The notes under the pieces were generated by a model. The model searched no databases. It was not told the DNA's origin and saw only the letters and a list, made by a program, of their open reading frames with translations. Source: an uncultured Burkholderiales bacterium (GTDB lineage Bacteria; Pseudomonadota; Gammaproteobacteria; Burkholderiales; Eutrophovitaceae). From it: a stretch of DNA of 50,920 nt. How positions within the stretch are numbered: the stretch's first letter is position 1; the number at the start of each line of letters is the position of its first letter. The stretch covers positions 1 to 50,920 of the forward strand of contig CBFIFN010000002.1 of NCBI GenBank assembly GCA_965661885.1, given 5' to 3'. The translations under genes and the position numbers were made by a program. Below, piece by piece: positions 8,780 to 50,920 of this stretch.

Positions 8780-8800
8780 GTCTGTTAGGAAAAAATCGTA

Positions 8801-9472: not shown

Positions 9473-9485
9473 GCGGTACTAAATT

Positions 9486-25980: not shown

Positions 25981-25993
25981 ATTCTTTCTACTC

Positions 25994-30593: not shown

Positions 30594-33224
30594 ATGACGA
30601 ATATCCCCGTACAAGCTAAGTCTCAAAGTAACTCCGCAAAAAACCTTAAAGTCTCACCACACACCCCCATGATGCGTCAATATCTTCGCATCAAGGCTGA
30701 TCATCCGGACAAGTTTTTGTTCTACCGAATGGGGGATTTCTATGAGCTATTTTTCGACGACGCAGAGCGTGCTGCCAGAATACTCGGGATCACGCTGACC
30801 TCTCGAGGCACTTCGGCCGGCCAACCAATAAAAATGGCCGGCGTCCCTCATCACGCTGCAGAACAATATTTGGCAAAGTTGGTTAAATCAGGCGAATCCA
30901 TTGCCATTTGCGAACAAACGGGAGACCCTGCGGCCGCCAAAGGACCTGTCGAAAGAAAAGTTGTTAGGGTAGTGACTCCGGGTACGCTATCAGACGCAGC
31001 TTTAATGTCTGAAAAGCACGAAAATTATGTATTAAGCTTCTATGAAAGAGAGAAGACCTGGGGGTTGGCTTGGCTTTCGATCTCAGCTGGAACATTACGC
31101 GTTAAAGAAAGTGCCTCGCTCTCAATAATTGATGAGATTGCACGACTGCAACCATCTGAAATTATTGCTCCGGATGGGGCAGTCTTTGTTGGTATCGATC
31201 AAATAAAAACCAAAATCCAACGATTACCAATTTGGCAGTTTGACGAAGACATCACCCGAAAGGTATTGTGCGAACACCTTAACGTTAGAGATTTACGCGG
31301 TTTCGGTTGTGACGATTCGGTCTGTGCAGTGTCGGCAGCAGGCGCACTTCTAGCTTACGCCCAAAGCACCCAGGCGGAACCCTTATCTCACATTACGACC
31401 ATTGGCATTGAACGAGATGACGATTTCATTCAACTCGACATGGCGACTCGAAAGAATCTTGAAATCAACACAACGCTTCAAGGAGAAAACAGTCCGACAC
31501 TTCTCTCATCTTTGGACCAAACAATCACCAGCATGGGCTCTCGATGGATACAACATGCGATCAACCACCCGCTGTTTAATCACAACGATATCAAAGAACG
31601 TCATGCTGTAGTGGGATGGCTAGTTGCGCAGGAGAATCAAGAAACACTGACGAGAATGAGACAAATATTTGCGTCAATATCCGATATAGAGCGAATCAAT
31701 ACGCGCATCACGCTTAGAAGTGCTCGGCCCCGGGATCTCTCGGGTTTAAGAGATTCCCTTCAGCAAACTCCGAAACTGCGAGAACTAATTAACGAACCCC
31801 ACTTACCTTTATTGCACTCGTTGACGAATGATTTGCGATGCGATAACAGGATTACAGATAAACTAAACCAGGCCATTCAAAGTGAACCGGCCAGCGTTTT
31901 AACGGAAGGTGGCGTCATCAACGATGGTTACGACGCTGAACTCGATTCGCTTAGGTCGATACAAAACGATTGTGGTGCTTTTTTAATAGCGCTCGAACAA
32001 AGAGAAAAAGAAAAGTCAGGAATCTCCAATCTCAAGGTCGAATTTAATCGAGTGCATGGGTTTTATATCGAAGTCTCTAAGTCCAACGCAAGCTCGGTTC
32101 CCGATACTTACAAAAGAAGACAAACTCTCAAAAATGCTGAGCGATTTATTACTCCAGAGCTAAAGGAATTCGAAGACAAAGCACTGTCAGCGAAAGATCA
32201 GGCTTTGAAACGTGAAAAATATTTGTATGAAGAGCTCATCGAAATACTTCAAAGCTTTCAAGATGAGATTCAGCAAGTCGCGCAATCCATCGCTCAACTT
32301 GATGGGTTAGGTAGCTTTGCTCAAATTGCAATGGACCAGGACTATGTGGCACCAACATTGGTTACGGGTAATGAAATAAGTATTGTTAACGGCCGGCATC
32401 CTGTTGTCGAAACTCAAATTGATAATTTCATTTCGAATAACTTGGAAATGAGCGTCACGAGAAGGATGCTGGTTATAACCGGTCCAAATATGGGGGGTAA
32501 ATCAACTTACATGCGCCAATGTGCGCTCATTGTACTGCTCGCCCACGCGGGCAGCTTCGTTCCAGCGCAGTCAGCTGTCATTGGTCGATTCGATCAGATT
32601 TTTACGAGAATTGGTGCGTCTGATAATTTATCTGGCGGCCAATCAACCTTCATGGTGGAAATGTCAGAAGCGGCTAATATCCTTAACAATGCGACTGAAA
32701 ATAGTCTGGTACTGATGGATGAGATAGGCCGGGGAACCTCGACTTATGATGGCCTTGCCTTGGCCTTTTCAATCGCTCGATATTTAGCTAAGCACAATGC
32801 TAGCCTCACGTTATTTGCGACCCACTACTTTGAGCTCACTGGTTTAGCAACTGAGATACAAGAGATAGAGAATATTCATGTATCAGCCGTAGAACACAAA
32901 GACGACATTATCTTTCTACATAGCGTCTCTGACGGAGCGGCGTCTCAAAGCTATGGGATTCAAGTTGCTCAATTGGCAGGGGTTCCAAAAGAAGTGGTTG
33001 CCGCGGCAAAGCGAGAAATAAAGTTACTCGAGACTAAAAGCCAGCGTAGCTCAGTCCAATCTGATTTATTTGACAAAAATAATGCGTGTCAGACTAATCG
33101 CGCGAACCCTAAAAATCCACTTTGGGAACGTCTTTCGGAAATCGAACCTAACGAGCTCACACCGAAAAAAGCACTCGATCTCGTCTATGAGCTTTTTGAA
33201 ATGCAGGAGCGAAAAAATCCTTAA
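30594..33224 (+). CDS. mutS: DNA mismatch repair protein MutS
   Basis: 876 aa. [17 protein letters not shown]...[15 protein letters not shown], and Walker [10 protein letters not shown]. Confidence 0.97.
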
Positions 33225-33253: not shown

Positions 33254-34720
33254 CTAAGTACCACAAAAAGTAACATGAGGCTTCGCGTCAATGGGCGCAG
33301 GGATCGCGTAATCATCATATCCCGCCTGCTCGTCGTAAGGCTCGGTAACCAAATCCAGCATCTTGGTGAACAGCCCTAAATCACTTTGGTTCACAGCAGC
33401 ATCTATAGCTTCTTCCATCTTGTGATTACGGGGAATATAAATGGGATTTACAGAATTCATTGCCAGTACACACTGCTCTCGGCTAGTACCATTGGCTTGC
33501 ACTCGTTTTTCCCAAACCATCAGCCAGTCCTCTAGGGCTTTTAAATCACTGAATTGCCCTAATAGCTGTTTTTTATCTCCCTCGAGCGCTAACGCTAGGT
33601 GGCGAAACACCGTTGTAAAATCAGCCTTACTTCCCTTCATCAAGACAAGTAATTGTTCAATGAGATCCGCGTCACCGTCGACGACTGATGTAAGCCCGAT
33701 TTTCTTGGTCATATTTTCAAGCCAATAATTCCTGTAGCGGTTGTTGAACTCGTCGAGCACATTAACAAACCTCTGGATAACGGTGTCTTGATCTTCTTTG
33801 TGTAAGGGGATCAACGCCTTCGCAAGTTGGGCTAAATTCCACTGACCGATTTTAGGCTGATTTTGGTACGCATAGCGACCATGCTGGTCGATGGAACTAA
33901 AAACAATTGATGGAACATATTGATCTATAAATGCACAAGGCCCATAGTCGATCGTTTCGCCAGATATCGCCATGTTATCTGTATTCATGACCCCATGGAC
34001 AAAACCCATAGTCATCCAGTCTGCAATCAATTTCGCTTGACTTGAGAGCACTTCTTTAAAAAAATTTAAGTATTGATCACTGGAATGTTTTACATCCGGG
34101 AAATGTCTCTCGATAGCGTAATCGGACAGCTTCTTCACCTGATCCCACTCTCCTCTCGCAGCGAAAAACTCAAAAGTCCCCACTCTCATATGGCTGGACG
34201 AGACTCGTGTCAAAATGGCCCTAGGCTTTAATTCCTCCCTGGCGACCCAATCATCGGTGCCGATAACAGCTAACGCGCGAGTAGTCTTAACTCCTAAAGC
34301 GAACATCGCCTCACTCATCAAGTACTCACGTAGCACAGGTCCTAGAGCAGCCTTACCATCGCCTCCGCGGGAATATGGAGTTCTTCCCGAACCTTTTAAC
34401 TGTATATCCCTACGTTTTCCAAACCGGTCGATAAGTTCGCCTAGAAGGAGCGCCCGTCCGTCACCCAACTGTGAACTAAACATACCGAATTGGTGACCTG
34501 CATATACCTGGGCAATGGGCGTGCAATTGTCCGGCAACGCGTTTCCTGAAAACATTGAAACTCCGGCATCCCCAGTGAGTAACTCGTAATCTATTCCGAG
34601 ATCGTGGACGAGAGACTGGTTCAACTGAAGCAACTGGGGAGAAGAACACACTTCGGGCTCGCAGTGTTGGTAACAGCCACTTAGCTCGTTTACAAAGCTG
34701 TGGGTAAAGTTAAGAGTCAC
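33254..34720 (-). CDS. selO: Protein adenylyltransferase SelO (YdiU/UPF0061)
   Basis: 488 aa. Contains YAGHQFGMFSSQLGDGRALLLGE and a pseudokinase-like core. Confidence 0.9.
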   Translation of the reverse strand: MTLNFTHSFVNELSGCYQHCEPEVCSSPQLLQLNQSLVHDLGIDYELLTGDAGVSMFSGNALPDNCTPIAQVYAGHQFGMFSSQLGDGRALLLGELIDRFGKRRDIQLKGSGRTPYSRGGDGKAALGPVLREYLMSEAMFALGVKTTRALAVIGTDDWVAREELKPRAILTRVSSSHMRVGTFEFFAARGEWDQVKKLSDYAIERHFPDVKHSSDQYLNFFKEVLSSQAKLIADWMTMGFVHGVMNTDNMAISGETIDYGPCAFIDQYVPSIVFSSIDQHGRYAYQNQPKIGQWNLAQLAKALIPLHKEDQDTVIQRFVNVLDEFNNRYRNYWLENMTKKIGLTSVVDGDADLIEQLLVLMKGSKADFTTVFRHLALALEGDKKQLLGQFSDLKALEDWLMVWEKRVQANGTSREQCVLAMNSVNPIYIPRNHKMEEAIDAAVNQSDLGLFTKMLDLVTEPYDEQAGYDDYAIPAPIDAKPHVTFCGT

Positions 34721-38136: not shown

Positions 38137-40116
38137 TCAAGATGAGGTAGCTTCTCCAGTCGAATTTGATACTTGACTTGCTTTTCGATAACGTCGATCA
38201 GACACTGCCAATATCCCCCCAAGTGCCATTAAAAATGCTCCGCCCCATATCCAATCTACAAATGGTTTTAAATATACTCTCACCACCCATGATCCATCAT
38301 TTAGCGGTTCGCCTAATGAAATGTATAAGTCTCGAGTAAATCCAGTATTAATTGCGGCTTCGGTCATAGCCATTTGCTGCACAGTGTAAAGACGCTTCTG
38401 CGGGAACATCCTATCGACTTCCTCGCCATCAACCAAAATTGCCATGGAACCCTCAACTCCAGTGTAATTTGGCCCTTTGAGCTCCGTTAGGGCATCAAGG
38501 CGAATCGTATAATCTCCGATCGTCACAGTATTACCGATCGACATTTTGACGTCTTTTTCCACTTGATACCCACCAACAAGCGTCACTCCTACGACAAAGA
38601 CCGCCACTCCCCAGTGCGCAAACAACATTCCGAAGTAAGAATTAGGCAACGAGATCAAAGAAGAAAAAATAGTCTTATGGCCACCAGAAGTCATTTGCTT
38701 GATCCTAGTCCATAAATTAACGGCACCCGCTAGCGCAATCCATATCGCCATCACTAAACCAAAGCTAACCAATAAGCTCCAGTCACCCATGACGAAGGGT
38801 ATCAAAAGAGCAGAAACAATCGCCGTAAAAAACGCCCATTTAAGCCTCGCCGCTAAATCTGGCACCGAGGATTTTTTCCATCGAGCGATCGGACCTATCC
38901 CCATTAGAAACATGGCTGGTGCCATGATGGGTATAAATACCGCATCAAAATAAGGAGGACCAACGGAAATTTTTCCAAAACCTAGAGCATCCAAAAATAA
39001 AGGATATAGAGTCCCCAAAAGTACGGAAGCCGCCGCGACCACCAGCAGTACATTGTTGGCCAACAGCGCTGACTCGCGAGATATTAGGTCGAACTTACCA
39101 CCCAATCCAACCTTCGGCGCTCTCCAGGCGAATAGTACAAGCGACGCACCTACGACAAACACTAGAAAACCGAGAATAAAAATACCACGCTCAGGGTCTG
39201 TCGCGAACGCATGTACGGACGTTAGAACGCCGGATCGGACCAAAAAAGTACCAAGTAACGACAACGAGAAAGTGATAATCGCGAGTAGCACTGTCCAAAT
39301 TTTGAAGCTGCCTCGCTTTTCTGTCACGAGAAGAGAGTGCATCAATGCTGTGCCACATAACCATGGCATGAAAGAAGCATTCTCGACTGGATCCCAAAAC
39401 CACCAACCGCCCCAACCAAGCTCATAGTAGGCCCACCAACTACCAAGCGCGATCCCCACTGTCAAAAAGGCCCATGCGATGGTCGTCCAAGGTCTTGACC
39501 ACCTCGCCCATGTTGTGTCGAGTCGACCGCTGATGAGCGCGGCAATAGCAAATGCAAACACCACTGAAAACCCAACATAGCCCATGTATAACATTGGTGG
39601 ATGAATCACCATTCCGGGGTCTTGCAGCAATGGATTCAAGTCACGACCGTCCAGAGCAGGAGGAAGCAAGCGATCGAACGGGTTGGAAGTAAGCAAAAGA
39701 AAAGAGTAAAAACCAATGGCGACTAGAGCCATCACTCCCAGGATCAACGAAAGCATGTCAGCGGGAACCCCCTTGCTGAATCGCGCCACTGCCGCCATCC
39801 ATCCCGACAACATCAAAACCCAGAGAAGAAGCGATCCCTCGTGACTGCCCCAGCTTGCGGCGAGTCGATAAGCCCACGGCAACTGCGAATTAGAATTTGA
39901 GGCGACATTTAAAACAGAAAAATCATTTGTTAAAAATGAGATAACTAGACAGCAGAATCCAAAGGCCGTCAGAAAAAATAAAACGTATGCAGATGGTCGA
40001 GAGACCGCCATCCAGTTGACGTGTCCTCTCACTGCTCCGGCGAGGGAGAAAAACGCCTGAGCAGAAGCCACACACAGAGCTAGAATGATTGCAAAATGTC
40101 CGACCTCAGGAACCAA
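38137..40116 (-). CDS. ccmF: Cytochrome c heme lyase subunit CcmF
   Basis: WWD motif WGGWWFWDPVENASFMPWL. The likely start is the TTG at 40116, giving (M)VPEVGHFAI, with AGGTGG 6-7 nt upstream. The track start, the TTG at 40143, is the alternative. Confidence 0.93.
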   Translation of the reverse strand: MVPEVGHFAIILALCVASAQAFFSLAGAVRGHVNWMAVSRPSAYVLFFLTAFGFCCLVISFLTNDFSVLNVASNSNSQLPWAYRLAASWGSHEGSLLLWVLMLSGWMAAVARFSKGVPADMLSLILGVMALVAIGFYSFLLLTSNPFDRLLPPALDGRDLNPLLQDPGMVIHPPMLYMGYVGFSVVFAFAIAALISGRLDTTWARWSRPWTTIAWAFLTVGIALGSWWAYYELGWGGWWFWDPVENASFMPWLCGTALMHSLLVTEKRGSFKIWTVLLAIITFSLSLLGTFLVRSGVLTSVHAFATDPERGIFILGFLVFVVGASLVLFAWRAPKVGLGGKFDLISRESALLANNVLLVVAAASVLLGTLYPLFLDALGFGKISVGPPYFDAVFIPIMAPAMFLMGIGPIARWKKSSVPDLAARLKWAFFTAIVSALLIPFVMGDWSLLVSFGLVMAIWIALAGAVNLWTRIKQMTSGGHKTIFSSLISLPNSYFGMLFAHWGVAVFVVGVTLVGGYQVEKDVKMSIGNTVTIGDYTIRLDALTELKGPNYTGVEGSMAILVDGEEVDRMFPQKRLYTVQQMAMTEAAINTGFTRDLYISLGEPLNDGSWVVRVYLKPFVDWIWGGAFLMALGGILAVSDRRYRKASQVSNSTGEATSS

Positions 40117-40164
40117 TGTCCACCACCTTTCCAAATTCAACAACTATAATAATTGCAGCTAAAC

Positions 40165-40608
40165 TCACTGGCTTTCCATCTTAATTTTTCGAGCTCTCTC
40201 CATGGCTTCCGCAGCCTCTGGTGGCATGTAGTTTTCATCATGTTTAGCTAATACCTGATCGGCCACAAAAACTCCGCCTGCATTCAAGCGGCCCTGAGCA
40301 ACCACACCTTTACCCTCTTGAAATAAATCTGGCAATATCCCCGTATATTGCACGGGCACGTTTTCGATTGAGTCGGTTACTTCGAACTGGACGGTTATAC
40401 CGTCGTTCCGTCTCTGGAGACTGTCTTCTAAAACCATGCCCCCTATACGAAAGGCCTGTCCGTCGGGAACTTTTCCAGCGAAGACCTCTGTTGGCGTATA
40501 AAAAAAGACTAGGTTGCTGCGAAACGCTTTCAATACAAATGAAGCTCCCACTCCGATCAGTGCGAGGGCCAGCAACACTAAAATTAAGCGTTTATGACGT
40601 GGTTTCAT
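40165..40608 (-). CDS. ccmE: Heme chaperone CcmE
   Basis: 147 aa. N-terminal anchor and heme-binding His in [12 protein letters not shown]. Confidence 0.95.
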
Positions 40609-40664
40609 TGTGCTTTCCCGACGATTTAACCATCATATTGACACGCATTCAGACCATGAGTTCA

Positions 40665-40787
40665 TCAATTTTTTCGAAGACTAAGAAGTTCGATCAAGAT
40701 GCACAACCCAGTTACGAGATAAGAACCCCAAACGTACAACCCATAGCCGCCCATGGCCAAAAATTCCGAAAAACTACCCCACTGCAT
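40665..40787 (-). CDS. ccmD: Heme exporter protein CcmD (40 aa; not in the supplied ORF track)
   Basis: Hand translation gives MQWGSFSEFLAMGGYGLYVWGSYLVTGLCILIELLSLRKN*. The ATG directly follows the ccmC TAA stop (40788-40790). It has the GGYxxYVW plus single TM plus basic tail pattern of CcmD and sits in the canonical position between ccmC and ccmE. Confidence 0.75.
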   Translation of the reverse strand: MQWGSFSEFLAMGGYGLYVWGSYLVTGLCILIELLSLRKN

Positions 40788-41519
40788 TTACCTCGCCCCT
40801 TTAGATTCATTCAACCAACCGGTATTACTCTCTCTATCTCTGATTATTTTTCTTACCCTAATAAGGGATACCGCTATCGAGTACATCCAGAACGCGAGCG
40901 CCATGACCAACATGCCGATTAACATACTCGACGCCATACTCGGAGATTTTGTAAAACTCACCGAGGCGCCTTGATGGAGAGTGTTCCACCATTGGACTGA
41001 AAAATAAATAATAGGAACATTCACGACTCCGACAAGCGCCAAAATAGCTGAAGCCTTGTCGCCTCGTCTCGGATCCTCAATGGATGAGCGGAGTGCCATG
41101 TAGCCTATGTACAAGAAAAGCAAAATGAGCTCTGACGTGAGCCGAGCATCCCATACCCACCAAGCCCCCCAAGTAGGCCGGCCCCAGAGTGCACCGGTCC
41201 ATAACGCGATGAAAGTCATCATCGCACCTGTTGGCGCGAGTGCGTGCGCCATCATCGACGAGAGTCGCGTATTCATAACTAAACCAATCGCCGCCCAAAA
41301 GGACATCATCAAGTAGATAAACATTGACATCCACGCAGCAGGCACATGAATGAAGATGATTCGATACGATTCCCCTTGCTGAAAATCTGTTGGCGCGACC
41401 AGGAAACCGATATACAGCCCCCAAATAGTTAGGCAAATCGCTAAAACAAAAAAAATTGAGGCCAGTTTTTTTGCTAGCGGGTAAAAATATTGCGGTGAAG
41501 AATACTTCCAGAAACTCAT
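40788..41519 (-). CDS. ccmC: Heme exporter protein CcmC
   Basis: 243 aa. WWD-type motif WGRPTWGAWWVWDARLTS. Polytopic membrane protein. Confidence 0.95.
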   Translation of the reverse strand: MSFWKYSSPQYFYPLAKKLASIFFVLAICLTIWGLYIGFLVAPTDFQQGESYRIIFIHVPAAWMSMFIYLMMSFWAAIGLVMNTRLSSMMAHALAPTGAMMTFIALWTGALWGRPTWGAWWVWDARLTSELILLFLYIGYMALRSSIEDPRRGDKASAILALVGVVNVPIIYFSVQWWNTLHQGASVSFTKSPSMASSMLIGMLVMALAFWMYSIAVSLIRVRKIIRDRESNTGWLNESKGAR

Positions 41520-41592
41520 AGGATTTTAAGTGTACCAAGCAACTCTTTGTCGACTGCGTAAATTAAATACCTTAACCATGTGGGTTAACCCA

Positions 41593-42267
41593 TTATTCTA
41601 AAGCAATTTTGATGGCACCAGCTATTGCCAGGGGTGCCAATGCCACCGATAAGCAGAGCATTGCAACCAAAATTGATATATGACCATCAATCGTGAGGCC
41701 TTGAAGGTCTGCTACGACTGCCCCAGCACCAAAAATTAAGATTGGCACGTAAAACGGAAGAATGAGTATGGATGTCAAGGCAGACCCACCCCGGACGCCA
41801 AGAGTCAATCCGGCGCCAATTGATCCGATCAACGACAGGACCGGAGTTCCTAACAACAGGGTTCCCAACAGAAGCAGTAAGCTTTGTGGCGGCAACCCAA
41901 ACTGGATTCCAATTAACGGTGCGACAATCACGACTGGCAATCCCGTTATCAACCAATGCGAGATGATTTTTGCGAGCACCAAAATAGTCAATGGCTCACC
42001 ACTTAATACCAAATGTTCAAGTGAACCATCATTATAGTCAGCCTCGAATACCCGGTGCAGTGCGAGTAGCGAACACAAAAGGGCCCCTACCCAAATAACT
42101 CCTGGGCCAATCAGCTTTAAGGTGCCGCTTTCAGGTCCAACAGCGAAGGGGAACAAGCTAGACACTATTAAAAAAAAGAATAAAACGGTGACTACATCTG
42201 TTTTTTGCCTTACGGCTAAAAGCAGCTCTTTACGAAGTAGTGACCAAAACGCGTTATTCACAATCAA
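41593..42267 (-). CDS. ccmB: Heme exporter permease CcmB
   Basis: 224 aa. Six hydrophobic segments. 4-nt overlap with ccmA. Confidence 0.9.
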   Translation of the reverse strand: MIVNNAFWSLLRKELLLAVRQKTDVVTVLFFFLIVSSLFPFAVGPESGTLKLIGPGVIWVGALLCSLLALHRVFEADYNDGSLEHLVLSGEPLTILVLAKIISHWLITGLPVVIVAPLIGIQFGLPPQSLLLLLGTLLLGTPVLSLIGSIGAGLTLGVRGGSALTSILILPFYVPILIFGAGAVVADLQGLTIDGHISILVAMLCLSVALAPLAIAGAIKIALE

Positions 42268-42878
42268 TCCAAACTCAGGCTATTTACATCGGGGATTACA
42301 TCTAGGTCTTGATGGGTAGTGAAAACGAGCAAGCCACCGAATTGAATATGCCGTTTGAGCTTTACCACTAGAGCCGAAACCGCTGTAACATCCAACGACG
42401 TAAATGGCTCATCAAGAATCCAAAGCGCCCTGTGTTTCATAAAGTCCGTTCGAGTTAGAGCGACTCGTCTTTTTTGTCCCGCGGACATATGCATCACGGC
42501 CCGATCTTTCACCGAATCGAGTCCAGCCTCTTCTAAAGCCGCCACCACTTCATTCGCACTAGGGCTAGTTCCGAGCAATGGCAACATGAGCCTTAAATTC
42601 TCGGTTGCAGTGAGCTGGTTTTTTAATCCGTCGTCATGCCCTAAGAAATTCACTGACCTCACGAAGTCACCGTAATTTGTTCTTATTGGCTCTCCACACC
42701 AAAGAATTTCACCCTCATCAGGTCTGGACAACCCCGCTAACAACCTGAGTAAGGTGGTCTTTCCTGAGCCGTTAGAGCCGGTCACACGCAGAGCGCTGCC
42801 TGGCTTTAACGAAAAGCTCAAAGACTTGAACAAGGTATTTTTGCCTCTAGCAAAACTCAATCCCTCTACCTCTAGCAT
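42264..42878 (-). CDS. ccmA: Heme exporter ATP-binding protein CcmA
   Basis: 204 aa. Walker A GSNGSGKTTLLR, signature MSAGQKRRVAL, Walker B WILDEPFTSLD. Confidence 0.9.
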   Translation of the reverse strand: MLEVEGLSFARGKNTLFKSLSFSLKPGSALRVTGSNGSGKTTLLRLLAGLSRPDEGEILWCGEPIRTNYGDFVRSVNFLGHDDGLKNQLTATENLRLMLPLLGTSPSANEVVAALEEAGLDSVKDRAVMHMSAGQKRRVALTRTDFMKHRALWILDEPFTSLDVTAVSALVVKLKRHIQFGGLLVFTTHQDLDVIPDVNSLSLD

Positions 42879-43194
42879 GGGCTGTCGACGTCGCCTCTGT
42901 AGAAAATCCCCAAGGACCTTTTTGAGTTTTCTTGAAATAGAACAAATTCAGCCAGTATGGGAAAAGCATCATGCGTTACAAGTCGGTACGAATTACTTGT
43001 GATTTCTACTCCACTGAGGAATTTGAGATTTTTTGACATCACGATTTTAAGTTTGAAACCCTCTTCTGACTGAGTTGGATGGCCTATTAACGTTGAATTC
43101 ATTTTAGAGACAAGGTTATCATTCTTTCTTATTATCGTGTTGTCTCAGTGACGTTTGATATTGTTAAGGGGACATTTTATTGGGAGCTGAATAC

Positions 43195-43830
43195 ATGCCG
43201 AATGTCACAATGTACTTTGATTTCATTTCACCCTACGCCTACCTGGCTTTTAAGAGAATCAATCGCAACATGAATCAAAAAATTGATTTCTCTTATCAAC
43301 CCGTTCTTTTTTCTGGTTTACTCAACCACTACGGCCAACTAGGCCCTGCCGAAATCCAGTACAAAAGGGAGTGGACCTTTTTACAAGCATTATGGGAAGG
43401 TAAAGAGGCCGGTATACCTATTCAATTGCCAGTTAGCCATCCTTTCAACCCCTTGAGCCTTCTGCGTCTCGCCATCGCCGAAACAGGTACAGGAAAAGCA
43501 ACTAAAGAGACTTGTGATCAAATTTTTGAATTCGTTTGGAATCGAGGTATCGATGTGTCGGACGTCAACGAATTCAACAACCTGAAAAGCTCAATCCCAA
43601 CAAAGCTCGACATAAATGATCCAATCGTTAAAGGCAAGCTAAGAAGTAACACGGAAGAGGCAATTGCCAATCATGTTTATGGCGTGCCATCCTTCCAGTA
43701 CAACGATAAAATATTCTGGGGTAATGATTCCCTTAAAATGCTTGAAGCTTACGTTGACGGCGACCCGTGGATTGACCAGAATTGGTCAAAACCAGATAAA
43801 GTAACCGTTGGGATCCGAAGAAAAAAATAA
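43195..43830 (+). CDS. 2-hydroxychromene-2-carboxylate isomerase-like DsbA-family protein
   Basis: N-terminal YFDFISPYAYLA motif typical of the HCCA-isomerase/DsbA-like family. The ATG at 43195 is preceded by GGGAG; the track uses the TTG at 43180. Confidence 0.8.
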   Translation: MPNVTMYFDFISPYAYLAFKRINRNMNQKIDFSYQPVLFSGLLNHYGQLGPAEIQYKREWTFLQALWEGKEAGIPIQLPVSHPFNPLSLLRLAIAETGTGKATKETCDQIFEFVWNRGIDVSDVNEFNNLKSSIPTKLDINDPIVKGKLRSNTEEAIANHVYGVPSFQYNDKIFWGNDSLKMLEAYVDGDPWIDQNWSKPDKVTVGIRRKK

Positions 43831-43861
43831 CCATATGTCAGTAAAAAAAGGATGCGAGGGT

Positions 43862-44641
43862 ATGTCAAAAGTTTGCTTAATTTTTGGTGCGGGCGCAGGA
43901 ATTGGCGTCGCTGTCGCAAAACGGTTCTCGGCAGAGGGTTATCACATCTGCTTAGTGCGGCGTAGTGACCAAACGGGCCTCGATCGTGCAGTTAAGGAAC
44001 TGTCAACAAATGGTCAAAAGGCATCAGGTTATATTCTTGATGTGACACTGCCCGATCAACTAGAGCTTTTAATCAAAAAGATTGAAAATGAAATCGGTGA
44101 AATTCATACGGCCGTTTATAACGTTGGGGCTCAAATTGGTGACCGCAGCCTAGACGACACTTCGCTTAAAGTGTTTGAGTTAGGTTGGAAGTTAGGGACT
44201 TTAGGATTATTCCGTGTCGCGAAGACCTTAATGCCCTACATGGTGAGTCGATCATATGGAAACCTTCTTGTTACGGGCGCAACCGCATCGGTCAGAGGTA
44301 ATGGTGGTCAGCACTCGCACGCCGCGACAATGGCAGCACGTCGAATGCTTTGCCAATCCTTAAATGCTGAGTTCGCATCAAAAGGCGTTCACGTAGCGCA
44401 CATTGTTATCGATGGACTAGTAGACGCGCCAGACACACTTGGTAAGATGCTCGGACCCGATGCTTTTGAGGCACTCAAACAGCGAAAAGGATACGAAAAA
44501 AATGGGTTACTACTTCCCGAAAAAATTGCCGACAGCTACTTCCACCTTGCCCATCAACATCCCTCCGCTTGGACTCACGAGTTAGACTTAAGACCATACT
44601 CAGCTCTAGCCTGGTGGAATCATCAAAAACTCGACCTTTGA
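43862..44641 (+). CDS. Atypical short-chain dehydrogenase/reductase family protein
   Basis: Rossmann motif FGAGAGIGVAVAKRF, then GATASVRG and VHVAHIVIDG. The start is ambiguous (ATG at 43835 or 43862; the track uses the TTG at 43808, which overlaps the upstream gene). Confidence 0.8.
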   Translation: MSKVCLIFGAGAGIGVAVAKRFSAEGYHICLVRRSDQTGLDRAVKELSTNGQKASGYILDVTLPDQLELLIKKIENEIGEIHTAVYNVGAQIGDRSLDDTSLKVFELGWKLGTLGLFRVAKTLMPYMVSRSYGNLLVTGATASVRGNGGQHSHAATMAARRMLCQSLNAEFASKGVHVAHIVIDGLVDAPDTLGKMLGPDAFEALKQRKGYEKNGLLLPEKIADSYFHLAHQHPSAWTHELDLRPYSALAWWNHQKLDL

Positions 44642-44765
44642 AACATGGGCGGAGATGATTGTGATTAAAGTCAGCACTAAAGCACACCTCACAGCCATCA
44701 CGACTGCCGCCAAGTCACTATTGGATAACGATTCGGTTTAATCCAACCGGTCAGGAGACAAACAT

Positions 44766-45953
44766 CTACACATTAAACTCATCCCTACACAATTTCGCTA
44801 GAATTTGAATACCCTCCTTGATTTCTTTAATTGACGGGTTTCCAAAACAAAGTCGTATTTTATGCTGGCCATTGGCATTAATAGACCACTCAGCCCCCGG
44901 ATTAACAGCTACTCCTTTTGTCAGAGCAAGCTCAGCTAAATGCGATGTATCCACATGATCGGGCAGATCAACCCAAATAAAAATTCCACCAGTCGGTCGC
45001 ATGTAGGTCGCGGATAAACCAAAGTGTTCATCGATTGCGTCGCACATTGCATCAGCTTTTTTCCCTAAAACTTGAGTCAATGCCGCGACGTGGTCGTCAA
45101 AGCTCTTCTCACAAAAAACTGCCAAGGACATTTGTTCCAAAGCTCCGGATCCTGCGTCAGTTTTATACGGCATGATTCTCGATAAAACCTCCCACTTTGC
45201 AACGAGATAGCCAACCCGAAGCGCCGGAGCTATCGATTTCGAAAATGACCCGCAGTAAATGACATAGCCTTCGGTATCAAACGATTTTATGGCTGGAGGT
45301 CTGTCACCCTCCCATATTAAATCGGCATAACAATCATCTTCGAAAATGGGAATGCCAAATTTTGAGGATAACGCCAATAGACGCTTCCGCTTCGCGACAG
45401 ACATCACCGTACCAGTCGGATTTTGAATAGTCGGAATCGTGTAAATATATCTCGGTTTTATGTTGTCACTGTCCAGGCGAACTAACGCGTTTTCAAGTTC
45501 GTCCATATTCATCCCATCCGCCTCCAGAGGAATACCCACCATGTTGATACCTAGGTTTTTGAGGCGAGTGATGGTCCCACCATAATTATCTTCTTCAATA
45601 ATGACCGTATCTCCTTTCTTGAGGAGAGTTCGGTTCACCAACTCAAGTGCTTGAAGGGACCCAGACAGCATTAGTATCTCTTTATCGGAGCATTCGATAC
45701 CCGCACGATTTTTTAATTTTTTAGTGATAAATTGCCGTAAGGGAAGATAGCCTTGAGGCCCACTCTCAAGTCCATATTTCGCTAGATCTCGCCCCTCTTT
45801 TAACAACACCTCTCCTACCGCCTCTTTTAGCTCGACGAACGGAATATTATCCGCCTCATTATGCCCGCCTACGAAATTGTATTTTGGGAATTCTGTCCAG
45901 ACACTGACTGGATCGGGCGACGCGGGGTGCAAGAAATTTTTAATATTAAACAA
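44766..45953 (-). CDS. PLP-dependent aminotransferase (class I/II fold, AAT_I-like)
   Basis: 395 aa. PLP-Lys motif SFSKSIAPALRVGY. Apparent TTG start at 45953, with no in-frame ATG nearby. Confidence 0.85.
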   Translation of the reverse strand: MFNIKNFLHPASPDPVSVWTEFPKYNFVGGHNEADNIPFVELKEAVGEVLLKEGRDLAKYGLESGPQGYLPLRQFITKKLKNRAGIECSDKEILMLSGSLQALELVNRTLLKKGDTVIIEEDNYGGTITRLKNLGINMVGIPLEADGMNMDELENALVRLDSDNIKPRYIYTIPTIQNPTGTVMSVAKRKRLLALSSKFGIPIFEDDCYADLIWEGDRPPAIKSFDTEGYVIYCGSFSKSIAPALRVGYLVAKWEVLSRIMPYKTDAGSGALEQMSLAVFCEKSFDDHVAALTQVLGKKADAMCDAIDEHFGLSATYMRPTGGIFIWVDLPDHVDTSHLAELALTKGVAVNPGAEWSINANGQHKIRLCFGNPSIKEIKEGIQILAKLCRDEFNV

Positions 45954-46072
45954 TTGATTTAGCCTTCATTAATGGTTTTTAACCTATTCTTAAAAAACAC
46001 CGTCACGGGACCATTGTGCGGTTGGGCCTTATTTCCAGATATCAAGTTTCAATCGATAACGATATTGTGGTG

Positions 46073-46270
46073 CTATTTTTTTCTAAGGCCCACCAAAATG
46101 AAAAATAAACCACCCGCACCTAAAAAAAGAGCCCCTAATAAGAAAAATATTGAAGTCAGCCCGCCCGTCGTACTGGTGACATAAGTCCCACCCAACATGA
46201 CAGACATACCCAATAAAATACAACCCCAAGACAAATAAAAACTCGAAGTGTTTATCGTTTTCTTTGTCAC
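46073..46270 (-). CDS. Small two-TM membrane protein (65 aa), function unknown
   Basis: GTG start at 46270, preceded by AAGAGGAA 7-8 nt upstream. Two Gly-rich hydrophobic helices and a C-terminal RKK. The overlapping plus-strand ORF 45972-46184 looks non-protein-like. Confidence 0.55.
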   Translation of the reverse strand: MTKKTINTSSFYLSWGCILLGMSVMLGGTYVTSTTGGLTSIFFLLGALFLGAGGLFFILVGLRKK

Positions 46271-46377
46271 AACTTATTCCTCTTAATTAATTTTGAATGC
46301 TTTACAAAACATTGACGTCATTCATGTTTACGTCGAGTTTAATTGAATTTAGCTGAACTGTAATAAACTTCCTGCAA

Positions 46378-48576
46378 TTAACATAAATGAGGTATCGAGA
46401 CTTCAAAGGTCACGCCATCGTCATTAGGTCGGTTACGCACAGCAACACTGCCCTCGTGGAATTGAGCCACTAGTTTCACTACATATAGCCCCTGTCCAAG
46501 ATGACTCTGATCGGAGACGTTCTTGATACGAGCGCGATCTGAAATCATAGAGTCAAAAATTTGTGCTTGGCTCTCAATCGGGATGATCGGACCTTGGTTC
46601 GTGACCTGAAGAAGGACATCATTACCGACAAGCGATAGTGCAATATCAATGGAGCTTTCAGGTATCGAAAATTCATTTGCATTTTCAATTAATTTATCCA
46701 ACATTTGTCGGAAAGCCTCTGCGGACCCGTTCACTCGCAAAGGGGATTCCGCAAATACCACTTTGAATTCCTGACTGTCGTACGCACTTCGGTATTCTTC
46801 GATGCTAACCGTAACAAGCTCACACAGATCAATTGCCTCTTTCTCCTCCGATGAGAATGAGGCTTCTAAGTCCGACGCCTCACTCATGCGCGTAACGAGA
46901 TTATCCAAACGACGAACACCATCAGCGGCTCGTTCTAAATACACCTGACCCTGCTCTATATCATCTGTTTTGCTAAACATTTCTAAAGAGCCCCGTGCTA
47001 TCGCAATTGGGGTTTTCAACTCGTGAGACAGGCGCCGTGAAAGATTCTCAAGATACTGTGTATAGTTTCTTACATCCACACTCACACTGGACAGGCTTCT
47101 CGACAGCATCCCAATCTCATCGCCCGATTCCTGTGGTTTAATCTGGCCCATGAACTTACCGTTCGCATCAAACGCATTTTGAGTCTGTTTGGCAAGATCC
47201 TCGAGGCGGTTCACTGCATTCCTAATAAGCAGATACTGTAAGACAACATAGCCTAAAAGGATCAGCAAAATAAACCCAATTAATAATTCAACAGTTTGGT
47301 AGCGCATCGCGAGCACCTTGTTCGTCGTTTCCTCGACAAACACTGCCCCTACCACTGCGTTTCCGACTTGAACCGGGGCGGCTGCACTGATTCTCCCACC
47401 TCCAGAACCGTTAGCCTCCTTGTAGAGTTGCGCATTCGAATCCCCTTCTAATGCAATATTAATTTCGTTGTTTTTTAGCTGCCAAGTACCGCTAGGTAAC
47501 TCTGCAAATTGATATGTTCCCGGATCAAGAAAAACATTCAATATTGGCCTCACTAACGGCGCCATCACCGATGCAAAGGCTTCGATAACGTTTACTCTTG
47601 AGGATGAGCGCTCAGCTCGGTCTCCGATTTGAGATATCGAACTATCTGACTTATCATTTTCATTATGCGCAATAATACGATGTTGGCTATCCACCACCCA
47701 AATTCGCGAGTCTGCTCGACCCACTTGTGCGATCACTCTGTTCACCTCAGGCGAGGGGAAAAATACTGGGCCGAGCGTCAATGGATCAGCTAAATTCTCA
47801 CAACTTCGAATAACCTCAATTTTTGGTTGCCCCAACATTCCAGCGACATTCATCACTCCTATTCCTAATGCCGGGCCTATGACCGAGCGATACATTTTTA
47901 TTTCAAGATCATACCCACCTGGCCGAGCCCGCACCTCTCCACGAATATCCCACTCTCGAACAATATTTCCCGCCTCATCTCGAAGAAGAAAGCCATCGTC
48001 AGTCAATACGTAAGCAGATAACTGCCCTGAATTATGCGGTTTAATCTGGAATTGACGAAATTGGCCGTCCACATCGACCGTAGATAACAGAATTTGATCA
48101 ACTGCTTCGTCACTAAGAGTTTCTTCAAATTCTCCAATTTCTTGCTCTGGGAAACGCTTGTAGGACGATTGCGCATCGACCGCGATTGCGAGATAGACTG
48201 ATTTATCATAACTGCCTATCCGATATCGAGCGGTGACACTGCGATCTAACGGATTCCCGAAACCATATTGAAGCGGTAAAGACTGACCTCCAAAGTCCTC
48301 CCACTCATCGAGTTTTCCATCGATTTCAGGCTTTAAAGGAAGCTGATTGATTGCAATATGGCTGGCTAAATCTGGTGCAAAAGGCGTCACCACATCACTC
48401 GTGAAAATAACTGGTCGATCACTGATCGCGACACTTAAGGCCTTTGCCGTTAAAAGAAGACCTTCTTTTTGTGCAACAAGCAGGTTTTCCATCAGAGCCT
48501 GCGCATAAAAAAAAGTAACCGTCGGCACCAGAGCCAACACTGACAAAGCAAGATAGAATTTTTTCTTAAGTCGCAC
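46378..48576 (-). CDS. psdS: Sensor histidine kinase with a roughly 400-aa periplasmic domain; probable proteobacterial dedicated sortase system kinase
   Basis: 732 aa. TM1 near residues 8-30 and TM2 LLIGFILLILLGYVVLQYLLI. H-box SHELKTPIAI, N-box LIENANEF and G-box GQGLYVV. GTG start. The psdS assignment rests on context (adjacent regulator and VIT-vWA gene) and on length. Confidence 0.8.
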   Translation of the reverse strand: MRLKKKFYLALSVLALVPTVTFFYAQALMENLLVAQKEGLLLTAKALSVAISDRPVIFTSDVVTPFAPDLASHIAINQLPLKPEIDGKLDEWEDFGGQSLPLQYGFGNPLDRSVTARYRIGSYDKSVYLAIAVDAQSSYKRFPEQEIGEFEETLSDEAVDQILLSTVDVDGQFRQFQIKPHNSGQLSAYVLTDDGFLLRDEAGNIVREWDIRGEVRARPGGYDLEIKMYRSVIGPALGIGVMNVAGMLGQPKIEVIRSCENLADPLTLGPVFFPSPEVNRVIAQVGRADSRIWVVDSQHRIIAHNENDKSDSSISQIGDRAERSSSRVNVIEAFASVMAPLVRPILNVFLDPGTYQFAELPSGTWQLKNNEINIALEGDSNAQLYKEANGSGGGRISAAAPVQVGNAVVGAVFVEETTNKVLAMRYQTVELLIGFILLILLGYVVLQYLLIRNAVNRLEDLAKQTQNAFDANGKFMGQIKPQESGDEIGMLSRSLSSVSVDVRNYTQYLENLSRRLSHELKTPIAIARGSLEMFSKTDDIEQGQVYLERAADGVRRLDNLVTRMSEASDLEASFSSEEKEAIDLCELVTVSIEEYRSAYDSQEFKVVFAESPLRVNGSAEAFRQMLDKLIENANEFSIPESSIDIALSLVGNDVLLQVTNQGPIIPIESQAQIFDSMISDRARIKNVSDQSHLGQGLYVVKLVAQFHEGSVAVRNRPNDDGVTFEVSIPHLC

Positions 48577-48597
48577 AGTTTTATGGCTTATTCTGCG

Positions 48598-49293
48598 TTA
48601 ACGATCTTTTTGCCAACGATAGCCGCGACCAAAATCTGTTTCTATGGCACCAAATGCATCATCTAGATGCTTAAACTTTTTACGGATTCTCTTTATGTTT
48701 GAAGTGACTGTGTTTCGGCTCACTTCAACGTCATGAATCATCAGCTGTCGATGAGCTTTAATTGCGCCGGGCAGTTCTACAAGTCGCTCAATAATCCAAT
48801 ACTCCCCGGGCGTAATATCCACAAACTCACCCTTCCAAGCCGCACGAGCTTCCTCCGGATAAATTTCCAAGGACCCGATACTTTTTTTCTGCCTATCCAC
48901 ACTTGGGGACTGTTGATCCATTTCGATACGACGAATAAGACTATTGATCACAGCGACGAGATAATCCATTGAGTGGTCCTTCGTACAATATTCATCCGCG
49001 CCTAGATTCAGTCCATAAATTTTGTCATCCTGCTCACCTCGAGCCGTCATCAAAATGATGGGCAATCGTTCTGTTTCAGGGTTCGACCTCAACTGTCGGC
49101 ATAACTGAAAACCTCCTTCATCCTCAAGCCCTAAACCAACATCAATAATGGCCAAGTCTGGAGTAGATTCCTCGATACCCATAAATGCCGACGCCCGATC
49201 GAGGTAATGTGACACCTTCCAGTCTGCTTTAGCAAACAGATCACTGTAATTTTGCGCAAGAATCACATCGTCTTCAACTAGAGCAATCCGCAT
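48598..49293 (-). CDS. psdR: OmpR/PhoB-type response regulator; probable proteobacterial dedicated sortase system regulator
   Basis: 231 aa. Receiver domain (EDD...AIIDVGL...MTA...K) and a winged-helix C-terminus ending GRGYRW. Perfect AGGAGG SD 7 nt upstream of the ATG at 49293. Confidence 0.85.
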   Translation of the reverse strand: MRIALVEDDVILAQNYSDLFAKADWKVSHYLDRASAFMGIEESTPDLAIIDVGLGLEDEGGFQLCRQLRSNPETERLPIILMTARGEQDDKIYGLNLGADEYCTKDHSMDYLVAVINSLIRRIEMDQQSPSVDRQKKSIGSLEIYPEEARAAWKGEFVDITPGEYWIIERLVELPGAIKAHRQLMIHDVEVSRNTVTSNIKRIRKKFKHLDDAFGAIETDFGRGYRWQKDR

Positions 49294-49500
49294 TAATATC
49301 CTCCTGAATAAAGTATTTAATACACGCTCAAACTATAACTCTAAGTATGAACTAAAACACTAGTCCGCCACTAAAGTCACAAAATTGCCACGAGTGACAT
49401 TCATTTGCCTCATCTCCTACCCCCTCTCCCACATATTTGCTCGATTTAATAGTGCTGTACGAGGTAAACACCGCACAACTAAACTAATCAGGAGAGAGAT

Positions 49501-50920
49501 ATGCAATCACCCTCGAGCGGCTCTTGGAGATACGCGCAAATACCAATAAAGACAATAATTACGGATGCATTGAAGGGCCTTTTTATTAGTGTTGGTATCG
49601 GTCTTACTGCCGCCACTTTTCTGTTCGCAACCGCTTTAGCGATAACGCTCATTGCTGGAACAGCGAACGCAGAAGAGTTGAACGATATACAGAGGACATC
49701 AAGTGGTAGCTTGCTCGTTAAAAATGCGCAAACCGGAGAGTACACGCCGACTCCAACGTTAGCGACTGAGGTGGAGATCGATGTCTCAGGTATGTTGTCT
49801 AGAACGAAAGTAAGCCAGAAATTCCAAAACAACTCTAAAGAGTGGGTGGAGGGAATTTACGTTTTTCCCTTGCCGGATAATGCCGCCGTTGATCACCTGA
49901 GAATGCGAATTGGAAGTCGCATCATTGAAGGCCAAATAAAAGAAAAAAAAGTGGCGAAAAAAATGTTCCATGAGGCGAGAAAATCTGGCAACAAGGCAAC
50001 ACTCATTGAGCAAGAACGTTCCAACATATTCACGACAAGTCTCACTAACATTGCACCCGGCGAGTCCATTACCGTCGAAATTGAGTATCAAAATACCCTT
50101 GACTACCGGGAAGGAATCGTCCGTCTGAGATTCCCATTAGTAGTTGCCCCAAGATATATTTCTGGTCGAGATTATGAAGACCTTAATGCCCCTCAAAAAG
50201 ACCGTAATAACGCAGAAGACGCAAACAGAATTTCACCACCGGTCATTGATGAGTTCGAAACTAAGCGTAATTTCGTGAACTTGTCGATCAATCTCGACGC
50301 AGGGTTCACCATTGCTAATATCCAGAGCACTAACCACGTTATCAAAAAACATAAAATAACTGATCGAAAATATACAATTCGACTCGCCTCTGGAAGCGTT
50401 CCTGCTGACCGTGACTTTGAAGTAACGTGGCGCTCCGCACCCAATGCGATGCCAAGTAGTGCGGTTTACACCGAAATCAAAGGAGATAAACATTTCTCTT
50501 TGATCACTTTGTTTCCACCGACTGTACAAACTGAGCCCGATGTCAGACTACCCCGTGATGTCGTCTTTGTGGTTGATACGTCTGGCTCCATGCATGGCTC
50601 GTCACTTGATCAAGCTAAAAGCGCATTAACAATGGCGGTAAGGCGTCTCGCCAAAAATGATCGCTTCAACATTATTCAATTTGACGATCAAACTAGAGCA
50701 CTATTTGATCATGAAAGACCTGCTTCCAATAAAAACTTAAAAGTCGCCTGCCAATATATAAAAGCGTTAACGGCGGATGGTGGCACCGAGCTCGCACCCG
50801 CTCTCAGTGTGGCATTGAATGACGAGGCAAAAACAGGGCGTATTCGTCAAATTGTTTTCATCACTGATGGCAGCATTGGCAATGAGGATCAAATTTTTTC
50901 TATGATCAAATCACGATTAG
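49501..50920 (+). CDS. Secreted VIT plus von Willebrand A domain protein, 5' partial (runs off the window); probable sortase target protein
   Basis: Hand translation from the ATG at 49501 (SD GGAGAGAG) is open for 473 codons to the window end. Signal peptide ...LIAGTANA|EE. A VIT-like region (EVEIDVSGMLSRTKVSQKFQN...VFPLPDNAAVDHLRMRIG...). vWA MIDAS residues DTSGSM, ADGGTEL and FITDGS. It is absent from the ORF track because there is no stop codon. Confidence 0.9.
   Translation, partial: MQSPSSGSWRYAQIPIKTIITDALKGLFISVGIGLTAATFLFATALAITLIAGTANAEELNDIQRTSSGSLLVKNAQTGEYTPTPTLATEVEIDVSGMLSRTKVSQKFQNNSKEWVEGIYVFPLPDNAAVDHLRMRIGSRIIEGQIKEKKVAKKMFHEARKSGNKATLIEQERSNIFTTSLTNIAPGESITVEIEYQNTLDYREGIVRLRFPLVVAPRYISGRDYEDLNAPQKDRNNAEDANRISPPVIDEFETKRNFVNLSINLDAGFTIANIQSTNHVIKKHKITDRKYTIRLASGSVPADRDFEVTWRSAPNAMPSSAVYTEIKGDKHFSLITLFPPTVQTEPDVRLPRDVVFVVDTSGSMHGSSLDQAKSALTMAVRRLAKNDRFNIIQFDDQTRALFDHERPASNKNLKVACQYIKALTADGGTELAPALSVALNDEAKTGRIRQIVFITDGSIGNEDQIFSMIKSRL

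Follow-up and report, generated by a model that had tools for sequence, protein, structure and literature searches.

Genes at the end of the window and their families

The stretch of DNA analysed here (the window) comprises 50,920 nucleotides of contig CBFIFN010000002.1 from an uncultured Burkholderiales bacterium (assembly GCA_965661885.1). From position 46378 to its last base, the window carries two adjacent minus-strand genes, for a sensor histidine kinase and an OmpR/PhoB-family response regulator, and, divergent from these, the first two-thirds of a gene for a VIT-vWA protein. With a probability of about 85%, we assign these genes to a proteobacterial dedicated sortase (Pds) system, i.e. 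the locus would represent the regulatory half (pdsS and pdsR) and the first two-thirds of the effector gene, the sortase target, on the chromosome of an uncultured marine betaproteobacterium. The kinase and the regulator most likely switch on this target, a secreted, adhesin-like protein. The locus is not a new kind of system; it is a divergent betaproteobacterial copy of a known, little studied cluster defined by comparative genomics.

An initial annotation of the window, made from the sequence alone, had described a 732-residue histidine kinase with a periplasmic sensor of about 400 residues, a 231-residue OmpR/PhoB-type regulator and, 207 bp away and divergent, an unlisted open reading frame (ORF) with a signal peptide, a VIT domain and a vWA domain with an intact metal ion-dependent adhesion site (MIDAS). 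All of these features were confirmed (Table 1). The kinase ORF is present as described and two hydrophobic helices bracket about 400 residues, and the regulator has a receiver domain with D51 and a Trans_reg_C winged-helix DNA-binding domain (Pfam). The target ORF was read by direct translation of the plus strand (the ORF list omits frames running off the sequence); AGGAG precedes its ATG, which lies 207 bp away from the start of the regulator gene, and the frame is open to the last base. The kinase and the regulator retain all catalytic residues. Moreover, pdsR lies 21 bp upstream of pdsS and the pair forms a two-gene unit divergent from the VIT-vWA operon; the two genes are probably co-transcribed.

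For all three genes, dedicated models of NCBIfam were by far the best matches, in agreement with the proposal in the initial annotation that the locus is a Pds system. The kinase matched TIGR03785 (PdsS) with 466.6 bits (E 1e-139, profile positions 1-703 of 703), the regulator matched TIGR03787 (PdsR) with 227.6 bits (E 1e-67, positions 2-226 of 227), and the target fragment matched TIGR03788 with 475.7 bits (E 2e-142, positions 1-394 of 629; runner-ups minor). The runner-up families of the kinase and the regulator were ChvG (134 bits) and PhoB (130.8 bits), leaving the dedicated models ahead by about 330 bits and about 100 bits, respectively. E-values of this size exclude chance as the source of the three matches. 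The target fragment does not reach the TIGR03788 cut-off of 551.65 bits because the window end truncates the ORF; a full-length orthologue that is 93% identical to the window target (P0001) scores 739.4 bits against the same cut-off. The Pds model set also includes TIGR03784 and TIGR03789 (PdsO); the range given earlier, TIGR03784-TIGR03788, had omitted the latter, and the symbols psdS and psdR used there read pdsS and pdsR in NCBIfam and in the literature. Opposite the target gene, the minus strand contains ORFs of 83-114 residues (49488-49832, 49786-50091, 50193-50444 and 50233-50529); given the very strong family support of the gene that they lie across, they can almost certainly be dismissed as genes.

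A generic kinase core could produce a match to TIGR03785, and we therefore repeated the search with the sensor alone (aa 25-445). This search returned 70 proteins, kinases of the same length class, with graded identities of 94%, 70%, 63%, 44%, 33% and then 23-27%. Every specifically named match was a dedicated sortase system histidine kinase, including those of Shewanella, Psychromonas and Pseudoalteromonas (98% coverage, E 1e-18 to 1e-21); a few matches bear generic labels (ATP-binding protein, ChvG). Thus, the homology of the kinase extends beyond the generic core and spans the family-specific periplasmic sensor. Because the sensor-only search finds dedicated sortase system kinases, we take the window kinase and regulator, on this sequence evidence, to be divergent family members and not generic neighbours.

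The kinase and the regulator both score below the curated equivalog cut-offs of their models (612.2 bits for TIGR03785 and 335.7 bits for TIGR03787). The initial annotation had held that such scores, together with a better match to a generic two-component family, would speak against the assignment; the scores are indeed below the dedicated cut-offs, and no generic family scores better. The kinases of other loci (loci and proteins are referred to by L and P numbers) are also below 612.2 bits (L022, 603.7; L035, 560.8; L001, 474.9; L002, 468.4). Since L022 and L035, the loci of which have pdsR, the target and the sortase, also miss it, the TIGR03785 cut-off is conservative, an annotation threshold and not a biological property. 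The regulators of L022 (342.8 bits) and L035 (387.5 bits) pass TIGR03787. The regulators of the Shewanella, Thiotrichaceae and Woeseiaceae loci and that of the window have a nearly invariant recognition-helix stretch, T(V/I)TS(N/H)IKRIRKKF, and the two regulators sharing this helix that were scored are those of L022 and L035.

Scores below the dedicated cut-offs and runner-ups such as CreC, ChvG, PhoB and CreB would also be expected if the kinase and the regulator were a generic envelope-stress pair of the CreBC, ChvGI or PhoBR type that merely lies beside a VIT-vWA gene, and CreC and ChvG are the closest families to the kinase core after PdsS. However, the dedicated models lead from end to end, the sensor domain alone retrieves Pds kinases, and the recognition helix agrees with that of PdsR proteins above the cut-off; moreover, the window proteins score far below the cut-offs for PhoB/PhoR and CreB/CreC. 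In addition, the divergent arrangement recurs in 26 loci of distant taxa, and an intergenic element is common to those loci (see below). Altogether, these observations largely refute a generic pair, which we consider extremely improbable.

Table 1. Positions of the genes, domains and sequence elements in the window
Feature	Position	Strand	Details
pdsS-like sensor histidine kinase	46378-48576	-	732 aa, GTG start
Kinase, first transmembrane helix (TM1)	about aa 7-29		hydropathy
Kinase, periplasmic sensor	about aa 30-430		hydropathy
Kinase, second transmembrane helix (TM2)	about aa 431-453		hydropathy
Kinase, HisKA	aa 511-572		Pfam; phospho-accepting H518
Kinase, HATPase_c	aa 619-729		Pfam
Distal sensor part, CBM9-like beta-sandwich	47752-48339	-	about aa 80-275; AlphaFold2 + Foldseek
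Membrane-proximal sensor part, alpha/beta PDC/PAS-like	47326-47751	-	about aa 276-417; tentative
pdsR-like OmpR/PhoB-family response regulator	48598-49293	-	231 aa; ORF + Pfam
Conserved intergenic block CAAACTATAACTCTAAGT	49329-49346	-	TATAGT on minus strand, 36-53 nt upstream of pdsR start
Candidate PdsR operator GTCACAAAATTGCCACGAGTGACATTCATTTGCCTC	49376-49411	+	phased half-sites
Sortase target gene, 5' two-thirds	49501-50920	+	473 of about 716 codons; cut by window end
Target, signal peptide	aa 1-57, 49501-49671	+	signal-peptide-like N terminus ending AGTANA/EE
Target, VIT	aa 89-196, 49765-50088	+	Pfam E 4e-35
Target, vWA	from aa 353, 50557 onward	+	Pfam E 5e-24
Target, MIDAS piece DTSGS	aa 359, 50575-50589	+	
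Target, MIDAS piece ADGGTE	aa 425, 50773-50790	+	
Target, MIDAS piece FITDGS	aa 453, 50857-50874	+	
Molybdopterin oxidoreductase	2385-4592		
mfd	16308-19742		
sufB-like	24544-26025		
mutS	30594-33224		
selO	33254-34720		
ccmF	38137-40143		

The remainder of the operon and its spread

Exact-sequence look-ups of the window kinase and regulator identified no contig on record, and the locus was extended by way of orthologous contigs. L001, which carries P0001, is collinear with the window from 39657 to its last base at 50920 with 91% nucleotide identity, and L084, also collinear, shares 97% identity with L001 and 91% with the window. The closest species-level genome, the marine metagenome-assembled genome (MAG) 'Betaproteobacteria bacterium TMED22' (L002), has 67% protein identity and 69% DNA identity. 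In these three relatives, the target comprises about 716-728 codons (the L084 copy is frameshifted) and ends in GTLPQTAT, a hydrophobic helix and a K/R-containing tail. This C-terminal arrangement is present in P0001, P0003, P0004, P0005, L002 and L084.

Sortases are textbook Gram-positive enzymes. In L001, L084 and L002, the gene following the target, and overlapping its stop codon, encodes a sortase of 194-196 residues, which passes TIGR03784 ('class GN sortase'; cut-off 158.25 bits) in all three, with 189.8 bits in L001 and 204.8 bits in L002. Its closest solved structure is that of the Bacillus anthracis class D sortase 2ln7, with HRDTHF, TLITC and an Arg aligned. Accordingly, a sorting signal and a sortase gene, which had been expected just beyond position 50920, are there in all three relatives, and the sequence of the window organism itself ends at 50920; extrapolation from the relatives places the target stop codon near 51651 and the sortase end at about 52235 in window coordinates. 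No sortase homologue was found elsewhere in the window, the 50.9 kb of the genome covered here; 'dedicated' denotes a genome-wide pairing of one sortase with one LPXTG-type substrate.

The Bacillus class D sortases (B. anthracis SrtC/SrtD, 2ln7; NF058671 'LPxTATN-specific') are the second-best family for the orthologous sortase, and the two have in common the aligned HRDT, TLxTC and Arg as well as a substrate motif that ends in TA(T) and not TG. However, the orthologous sortase passes TIGR03784 and misses the class D cut-offs (87 against 140 and 80 against 165 bits), and its single, presumably dedicated substrate is encoded next door. Moreover, because the host is a diderm, the sortase must work in the periplasm, unlike the Bacillus class D enzymes.

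Directly after the sortase gene, the relatives have an ORF of 98-109 residues (L001, 12843-13139; L002, 10833-11162; L084, 11071-11367) the match of which to the class GN sortase model is confined to the C-terminal half (positions 109-174). By synteny, this ORF corresponds to a place shortly after the 3' end of the window. This half-sortase lacks the His-containing half and a signal peptide, and a Lys replaces the catalytic Cys (TLVTKFPFD). In its core, L001 and L002 have about 80% identity (by eye), and in the neighbouring genes about 67-70%; since the core identity exceeds that of its neighbours, the comparison suggests a selected paralogue and not a decaying remnant.

Two other small ORFs were considered as parts of the system and rejected, as they are conserved only in the closest relatives and not in L002. 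The first, of 65 residues, lies just downstream of the kinase in the window (46073-46270, minus strand), and has two hydrophobic stretches and no family match; both L001 and L084 have it as a conserved, called gene, and L002 showed none. The second, of 71 residues and lipoprotein-like, follows the sortase.

The window ends inside the target gene, and the system might have decayed here, i.e. the target would be truncated, frameshifted or devoid of its signal, or the sortase lost, such that the regulatory pair and a remnant are left. A frameshift divides the L084 target into a 249-residue VIT ORF (8226-8975) and a 457-residue vWA ORF (9001-10374); the site of the break is a linker (window aa about 220-250) with strong variation even among 90-93% identical orthologues. 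C-terminal target fragments also recur in the protein database (P0031, and P0058 with its 15 member sequences). The frameshift suggests that inactivation occurs in the window clade, and the split could represent real inactivation, phase variation or a sequencing error. By contrast, the window ORF passes the linker in which L084 breaks and stays open for 473 codons, its VIT and MIDAS features are all intact, the relatives P0001, P0003 and P0004 (90-93% identity) are full length with LPQTAT, and the catalytic residues of the kinase and the regulator are all kept. On balance, decay of the window copy is improbable.

To place the locus in its family, we used a survey with one genome per species, which gave at least 600 matches, the best 80 of which were examined. 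In nearly all of these 80 species-level loci, the sortase gene adjoins that of the target. Divergent pdsRS genes lie adjacent to the target, or within about 1.4 kb of it, in 26 of the 80, mostly in Gamma- and Betaproteobacteria; the arrangement in the window, in which pdsRS adjoins the target operon across the 207-bp gap, is also found in Shewanella. The target-sortase pair occurs in many Alphaproteobacteria and also in Nitrospira/Nitrospirales, Rokubacteria/Methylomirabilota, Vicinamibacteria and a Trueperaceae MAG. The non-proteobacterial loci (L010, L012, L014, L016, L017, L024, L028, L046, L070 and L075) are usually without adjacent pdsRS. Because the pair is present outside Proteobacteria, 'proteobacterial' in the family name is too narrow. 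In a Pseudoalteromonas sp. (L083, 7311-10139), NCBI-named pdsR and pdsS genes were found, and the 8 kb to each side contain neither a target nor a sortase nor pdsO; thus, the regulatory pair does not always lie beside its presumed operon.

LPQTAT is the sorting motif of the window clade and also the most frequent form in other lineages (target C termini, L002-L081). Woeseiaceae have FPATAT instead, several Betaproteobacteria LP(Q/R)GAT, and further lineages GAQTAT, MARTAT or WPQTAT. The constant features are restricted to a (T/G)A(T/S) core, the helix and the basic tail. The lineage-specific variants are a hint from the sequences that sortase specificity may co-evolve with the sorting motif.

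PdsO (TIGR03789) is an OmpA-like fifth component, the gene of which lies between pdsR and the target in several loci (Shewanella L082, L022, L030 and others). Woeseiaceae loci are also without an adjacent PdsO. Since PdsO is not universal among the loci, it is treated here as an accessory component.

Compared with the Pds system of Shewanella (L082), the locus has the same gene families, divergent pdsRS, a target with VIT and vWA/MIDAS domains, an LPxTAT-type signal with an adjacent sortase (in the window orthologues), and the same phased GCCAY repeat about 100 nt upstream of the operon. The locus differs in having no pdsO gene between pdsR and the target, in that the host is a betaproteobacterium and not a marine gammaproteobacterium, and in that the window relatives have the extra conserved half-sortase ORF after the sortase. 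Moreover, the window sensor is 23-25% identical to those of the Pds kinases of Shewanella, Psychromonas and Pseudoalteromonas, and the window kinase and regulator are below the cut-offs of the dedicated models.

A phased repeat between pdsR and the target

Comparison of the 207-bp intergenic region between the window, L001 and L002 revealed a nearly invariant block, CACAAAATTGCCACGA(G/T)TGACA, despite 69% flanking identity in L002. In the other regulator-target intergenic regions, the most widespread 6-8-mers were TTGCCA, GCCACA and GCCACATT, which typically recur at 10-11 and 21 bp. Anchoring of 30 instances on the second half-site gave GCCA(T/C)-N6-GCCAC(G/A)(A/T)TT-N~11-(T/C)GCC, with half-sites phased at about 0, 11 and 31-32 bp. 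This element always shares the strand of the target operon and is usually 85-135 nt upstream of the first gene of this operon, and upstream of pdsO where this gene is present. In the window, the half-sites start at 49376 (GTCAC), 49387 (GCCAC) and 49407 (GCCTC), and the whole element, on the target strand, is separated from the pdsR start codon by 83 nt and precedes the target ATG by about 90-125 nt.

The element was detected in Alphaproteobacteria (Ensifer L065, L033), Betaproteobacteria (the window clade, L007, L008, L011, L020, L023 and L026) and Gammaproteobacteria (Woeseiaceae, Chromatiales, Thiotrichaceae and Shewanella). In Shewanella L082, it reads TTGCCATTTTGTTGCCAC, about 100 nt upstream of pdsO and with the same geometry as in the window. 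The pattern of two half-sites, which was defined after looking at the same data and many instances of which come from related genomes, occurs at 1.49 per kb in regulator-target intergenic DNA and at 0.08 per kb in all 1.18 Mb of the loci; in the 50.9-kb window, its sole match is at 49376-49391 (0.35 expected). Within 500 bp upstream of the target, the pattern is present in 11 of the 52 loci without an adjacent regulator (about 2% estimated by chance); in such loci, pdsRS may lie elsewhere in the genome. From these comparisons, we infer that the phased GCCAY repeat, which is new in this analysis, is a candidate PdsR operator to which two PdsR dimers would bind, as likened to other OmpR/PhoB regulators.

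As the repeat also resembles a Pho box, the operon could belong to the phosphate-starvation regulon and be bound by PhoB instead of the adjacent regulator. The direct repeats phased at 10-11 bp are like those of Pho boxes, and the window sequence GTCACAAAATTGCCAC agrees at 13 of 16 positions (own count) with the Pho box consensus, which we take to be CTGTCATAWAWCTGTCAY. PhoB is, moreover, the second-best family of the regulator, and the intergenic regions of L054 and L057 contain TGTCAT repeats. However, the half-site across the family is GCCA(C/T), i.e. GCCAY and not the GTCAY of the Pho box, the element travels with the target operon across lineages of three classes, and the recognition helix of PdsR is nearly invariant across those same lineages. 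Finally, in Shewanella algae, a pdsS mutation alone accompanies induction of the operon (PMC11580497). Control by PhoB is therefore very improbable, and we retain the repeat as the candidate PdsR operator. The TGTCAT repeats of L054 and L057 recur at 10, 21 and 22 bp in place of GCCAY, and these two loci may carry a variant operator that is closer to the Pho box.

Another block, at 49329-49346, contains TATAGT on the minus strand and is kept in the window, in L001 and in the 69% identical L002. By its position and conservation, this block may be the -10 element of a pdsRS promoter; a promoter scan did not call it. In total, the promoter and terminator scan of 45900-49700 gave counts no higher than in shuffled sequence and nothing usable intergenically. 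A repeat finder detected in the intergenic region only a 10-nt inverted pair, 174 nt apart and overlapping both ribosome-binding regions, and missed the degenerate phased half-sites.

Sensor, output and attachment

The sensor was modelled using AlphaFold2 (aa 25-445, 38 homologues), with a mean predicted local distance difference test (pLDDT) score of 75. For the distal part, Foldseek matched the CBM9 of Thermotoga Xyn10A (1i82; E 1.5e-7, target-normalised TM-score 0.63), with further matches to 7nwo and 4jpq. Profile searches of PDB sequences also reach 1i82 (E 2.6e-4 and 1.7e-3), and the homologue P0174 has a precomputed match to PF06452, the Pfam family of CBM9. In CBM9, two tryptophans presumably clamp the sugar. 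Sugar binding of the CBM9 type by the PdsS sensor was rejected: the fold agrees and the clamp pair is not kept. Because these tryptophans are not conserved, we claim no carbohydrate ligand for the sensor. The membrane-proximal part gave weak Foldseek matches (E about 0.01-0.02) to the extracellular domains of WalK/YycG (7dud and 5is1; probability 1.0, target-normalised TM-scores 0.51-0.54). In the model, the PdsS sensor would thus consist of a CBM9-like domain and, tentatively, a PDC-like domain, an architecture that is new in this analysis. Such a sensor of about 400 residues is unlike the known sensors of PhoR and CreC.

In serial blood isolates of Shewanella algae, a recurrent G547W substitution in the HisKA domain of PdsS accompanies carbapenem resistance (PMC11580497; 2024). 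In the G547W background, pdsS was induced 4.8-fold, pdsR 18.2-fold, the sortase gene 126-fold, the target gene 388-fold and pdsO 799-fold (PMC11580497). These data support, as a correlation in one species, that the state of PdsS controls expression of the operon. The initial annotation had stated that, as far as known, the inducing signal, the regulon and the attachment partner had not been shown experimentally; for the regulon, this statement is outdated (PMC11580497), and for the signal and the acceptor it agrees with the searchable literature. In this literature, the biochemistry of Gram-negative sortases comes down to mentions in comparative genomics, reviews and the S. algae study, and reviews call Gram-negative sortases uncharacterised. 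As a lead only, in Limnobacter thiooxidans, gamma radiation strongly induces a 708-residue VIT-vWA protein, overexpression of which is protective, according to a 2026 preprint.

We propose the following mechanism. PdsS would sense a periplasmic or envelope cue through its CBM9-like and PDC-like sensor of about 400 residues and phosphorylate PdsR on D51; dimers of phosphorylated PdsR would then bind the phased GCCAY repeats at 49376-49411 and switch on the target-sortase operon and, probably, pdsRS as well. The target would be exported by the Sec system and be held in the inner membrane by its C-terminal helix. The sortase, with an inner-membrane anchor and a catalytic domain facing the periplasm, would cut the sorting motif between LPQT and AT and hand the protein to an amine nucleophile. 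By analogy to class D sortases, the acceptor amine would most plausibly be on the meso-diaminopimelate side chain of peptidoglycan, and this acceptor would fit the peptidoglycan-binding PdsO partner of other lineages. As an outcome, a MIDAS-containing binding module would be tethered in the cell envelope.

The main mechanistic rival to anchoring is release, in which the sortase would be a maturation or release protease: with water for a nucleophile, it would cut the target off its C-terminal membrane helix, and the VIT-vWA protein would become a soluble product, periplasmic or secreted. In favour of release, the searchable literature describes no acceptor used by a class GN sortase, and homologous VIT-vWA proteins with interchangeable C-terminal signals share the cleavage step (Haft and Varghese 2011, PMC3237569). 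The latter proteins, with GlyGly-CTERM (rhombosortase) or PEP-CTERM (exosortase) signals, have a passenger homologous to the Pds target, a tripartite signal layout and a dedicated, often adjacent enzyme; in this literature-based comparison, their signals and enzymes are unrelated to those of Pds and no pair of the PdsS/PdsR type is mentioned (PMC3237569). Three points stand against release. The sortase has the catalytic His, Cys and Arg and the class D-like fold of a transpeptidase; class D sortases attach LPNTA substrates to meso-diaminopimelate, which proteobacterial peptidoglycan also contains; and many loci have the co-induced, peptidoglycan-binding, OmpA-like PdsO, which points to the cell wall. 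We therefore consider release unlikely, and favour anchoring.

A wider and rather doubtful reading would make Pds a response to envelope damage: the CBM9-like domain of PdsS would respond to a glycan cue such as the ends of cell-wall glycans that have become exposed, and signal through PdsR and the GCCAY operator, and the periplasmic sortase would covalently link the VIT-vWA protein to meso-diaminopimelate of peptidoglycan. If true, this could explain the beta-lactam phenotype of S. algae, and to our knowledge a sortase-made bond between a protein and the cell wall would be the first in a diderm.

Several observations weigh against our assignment of the locus and the functions that we attach to it. 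The kinase and the regulator are below the dedicated cut-offs, and in L022 and L035 the kinases miss the cut-off like that of the window, yet their regulators pass. The clamp tryptophans of CBM9 align with non-aromatic residues throughout the sensor family at the level of single residues. Neither the window (phmmer, E up to 10) nor L001, L002 and L084 yielded a PdsO-like ORF, such that the component absent here is the one whose gene is most strongly induced in S. algae. The L084 target is split by a frameshift, the operator motif was defined on the data in which it was then counted, and the searchable literature names no acceptor molecule for any class GN sortase.

The locus adds a divergent betaproteobacterial lineage to the Pds family, and the link to carbapenem resistance in S. 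algae gives this family some clinical relevance. The candidate operator common to three proteobacterial classes would offer a direct handle on the PdsR regulon, and the two-domain architecture proposed for the PdsS sensor would narrow the search for the inducing signal. The window copy, which is incomplete, does not alone answer the question of how sortases work in diderms.

Outside of the locus, no tRNA gene or mobile-element signature was seen in the window. A mobile island was considered and rejected, as the surrounding genes are housekeeping genes and there is no tRNA gene. Positions 1-46000 represent housekeeping chromosome (Table 1), in which two outer-membrane efflux proteins are also encoded, and the G+C content is about 40-49% over 40000-50500.

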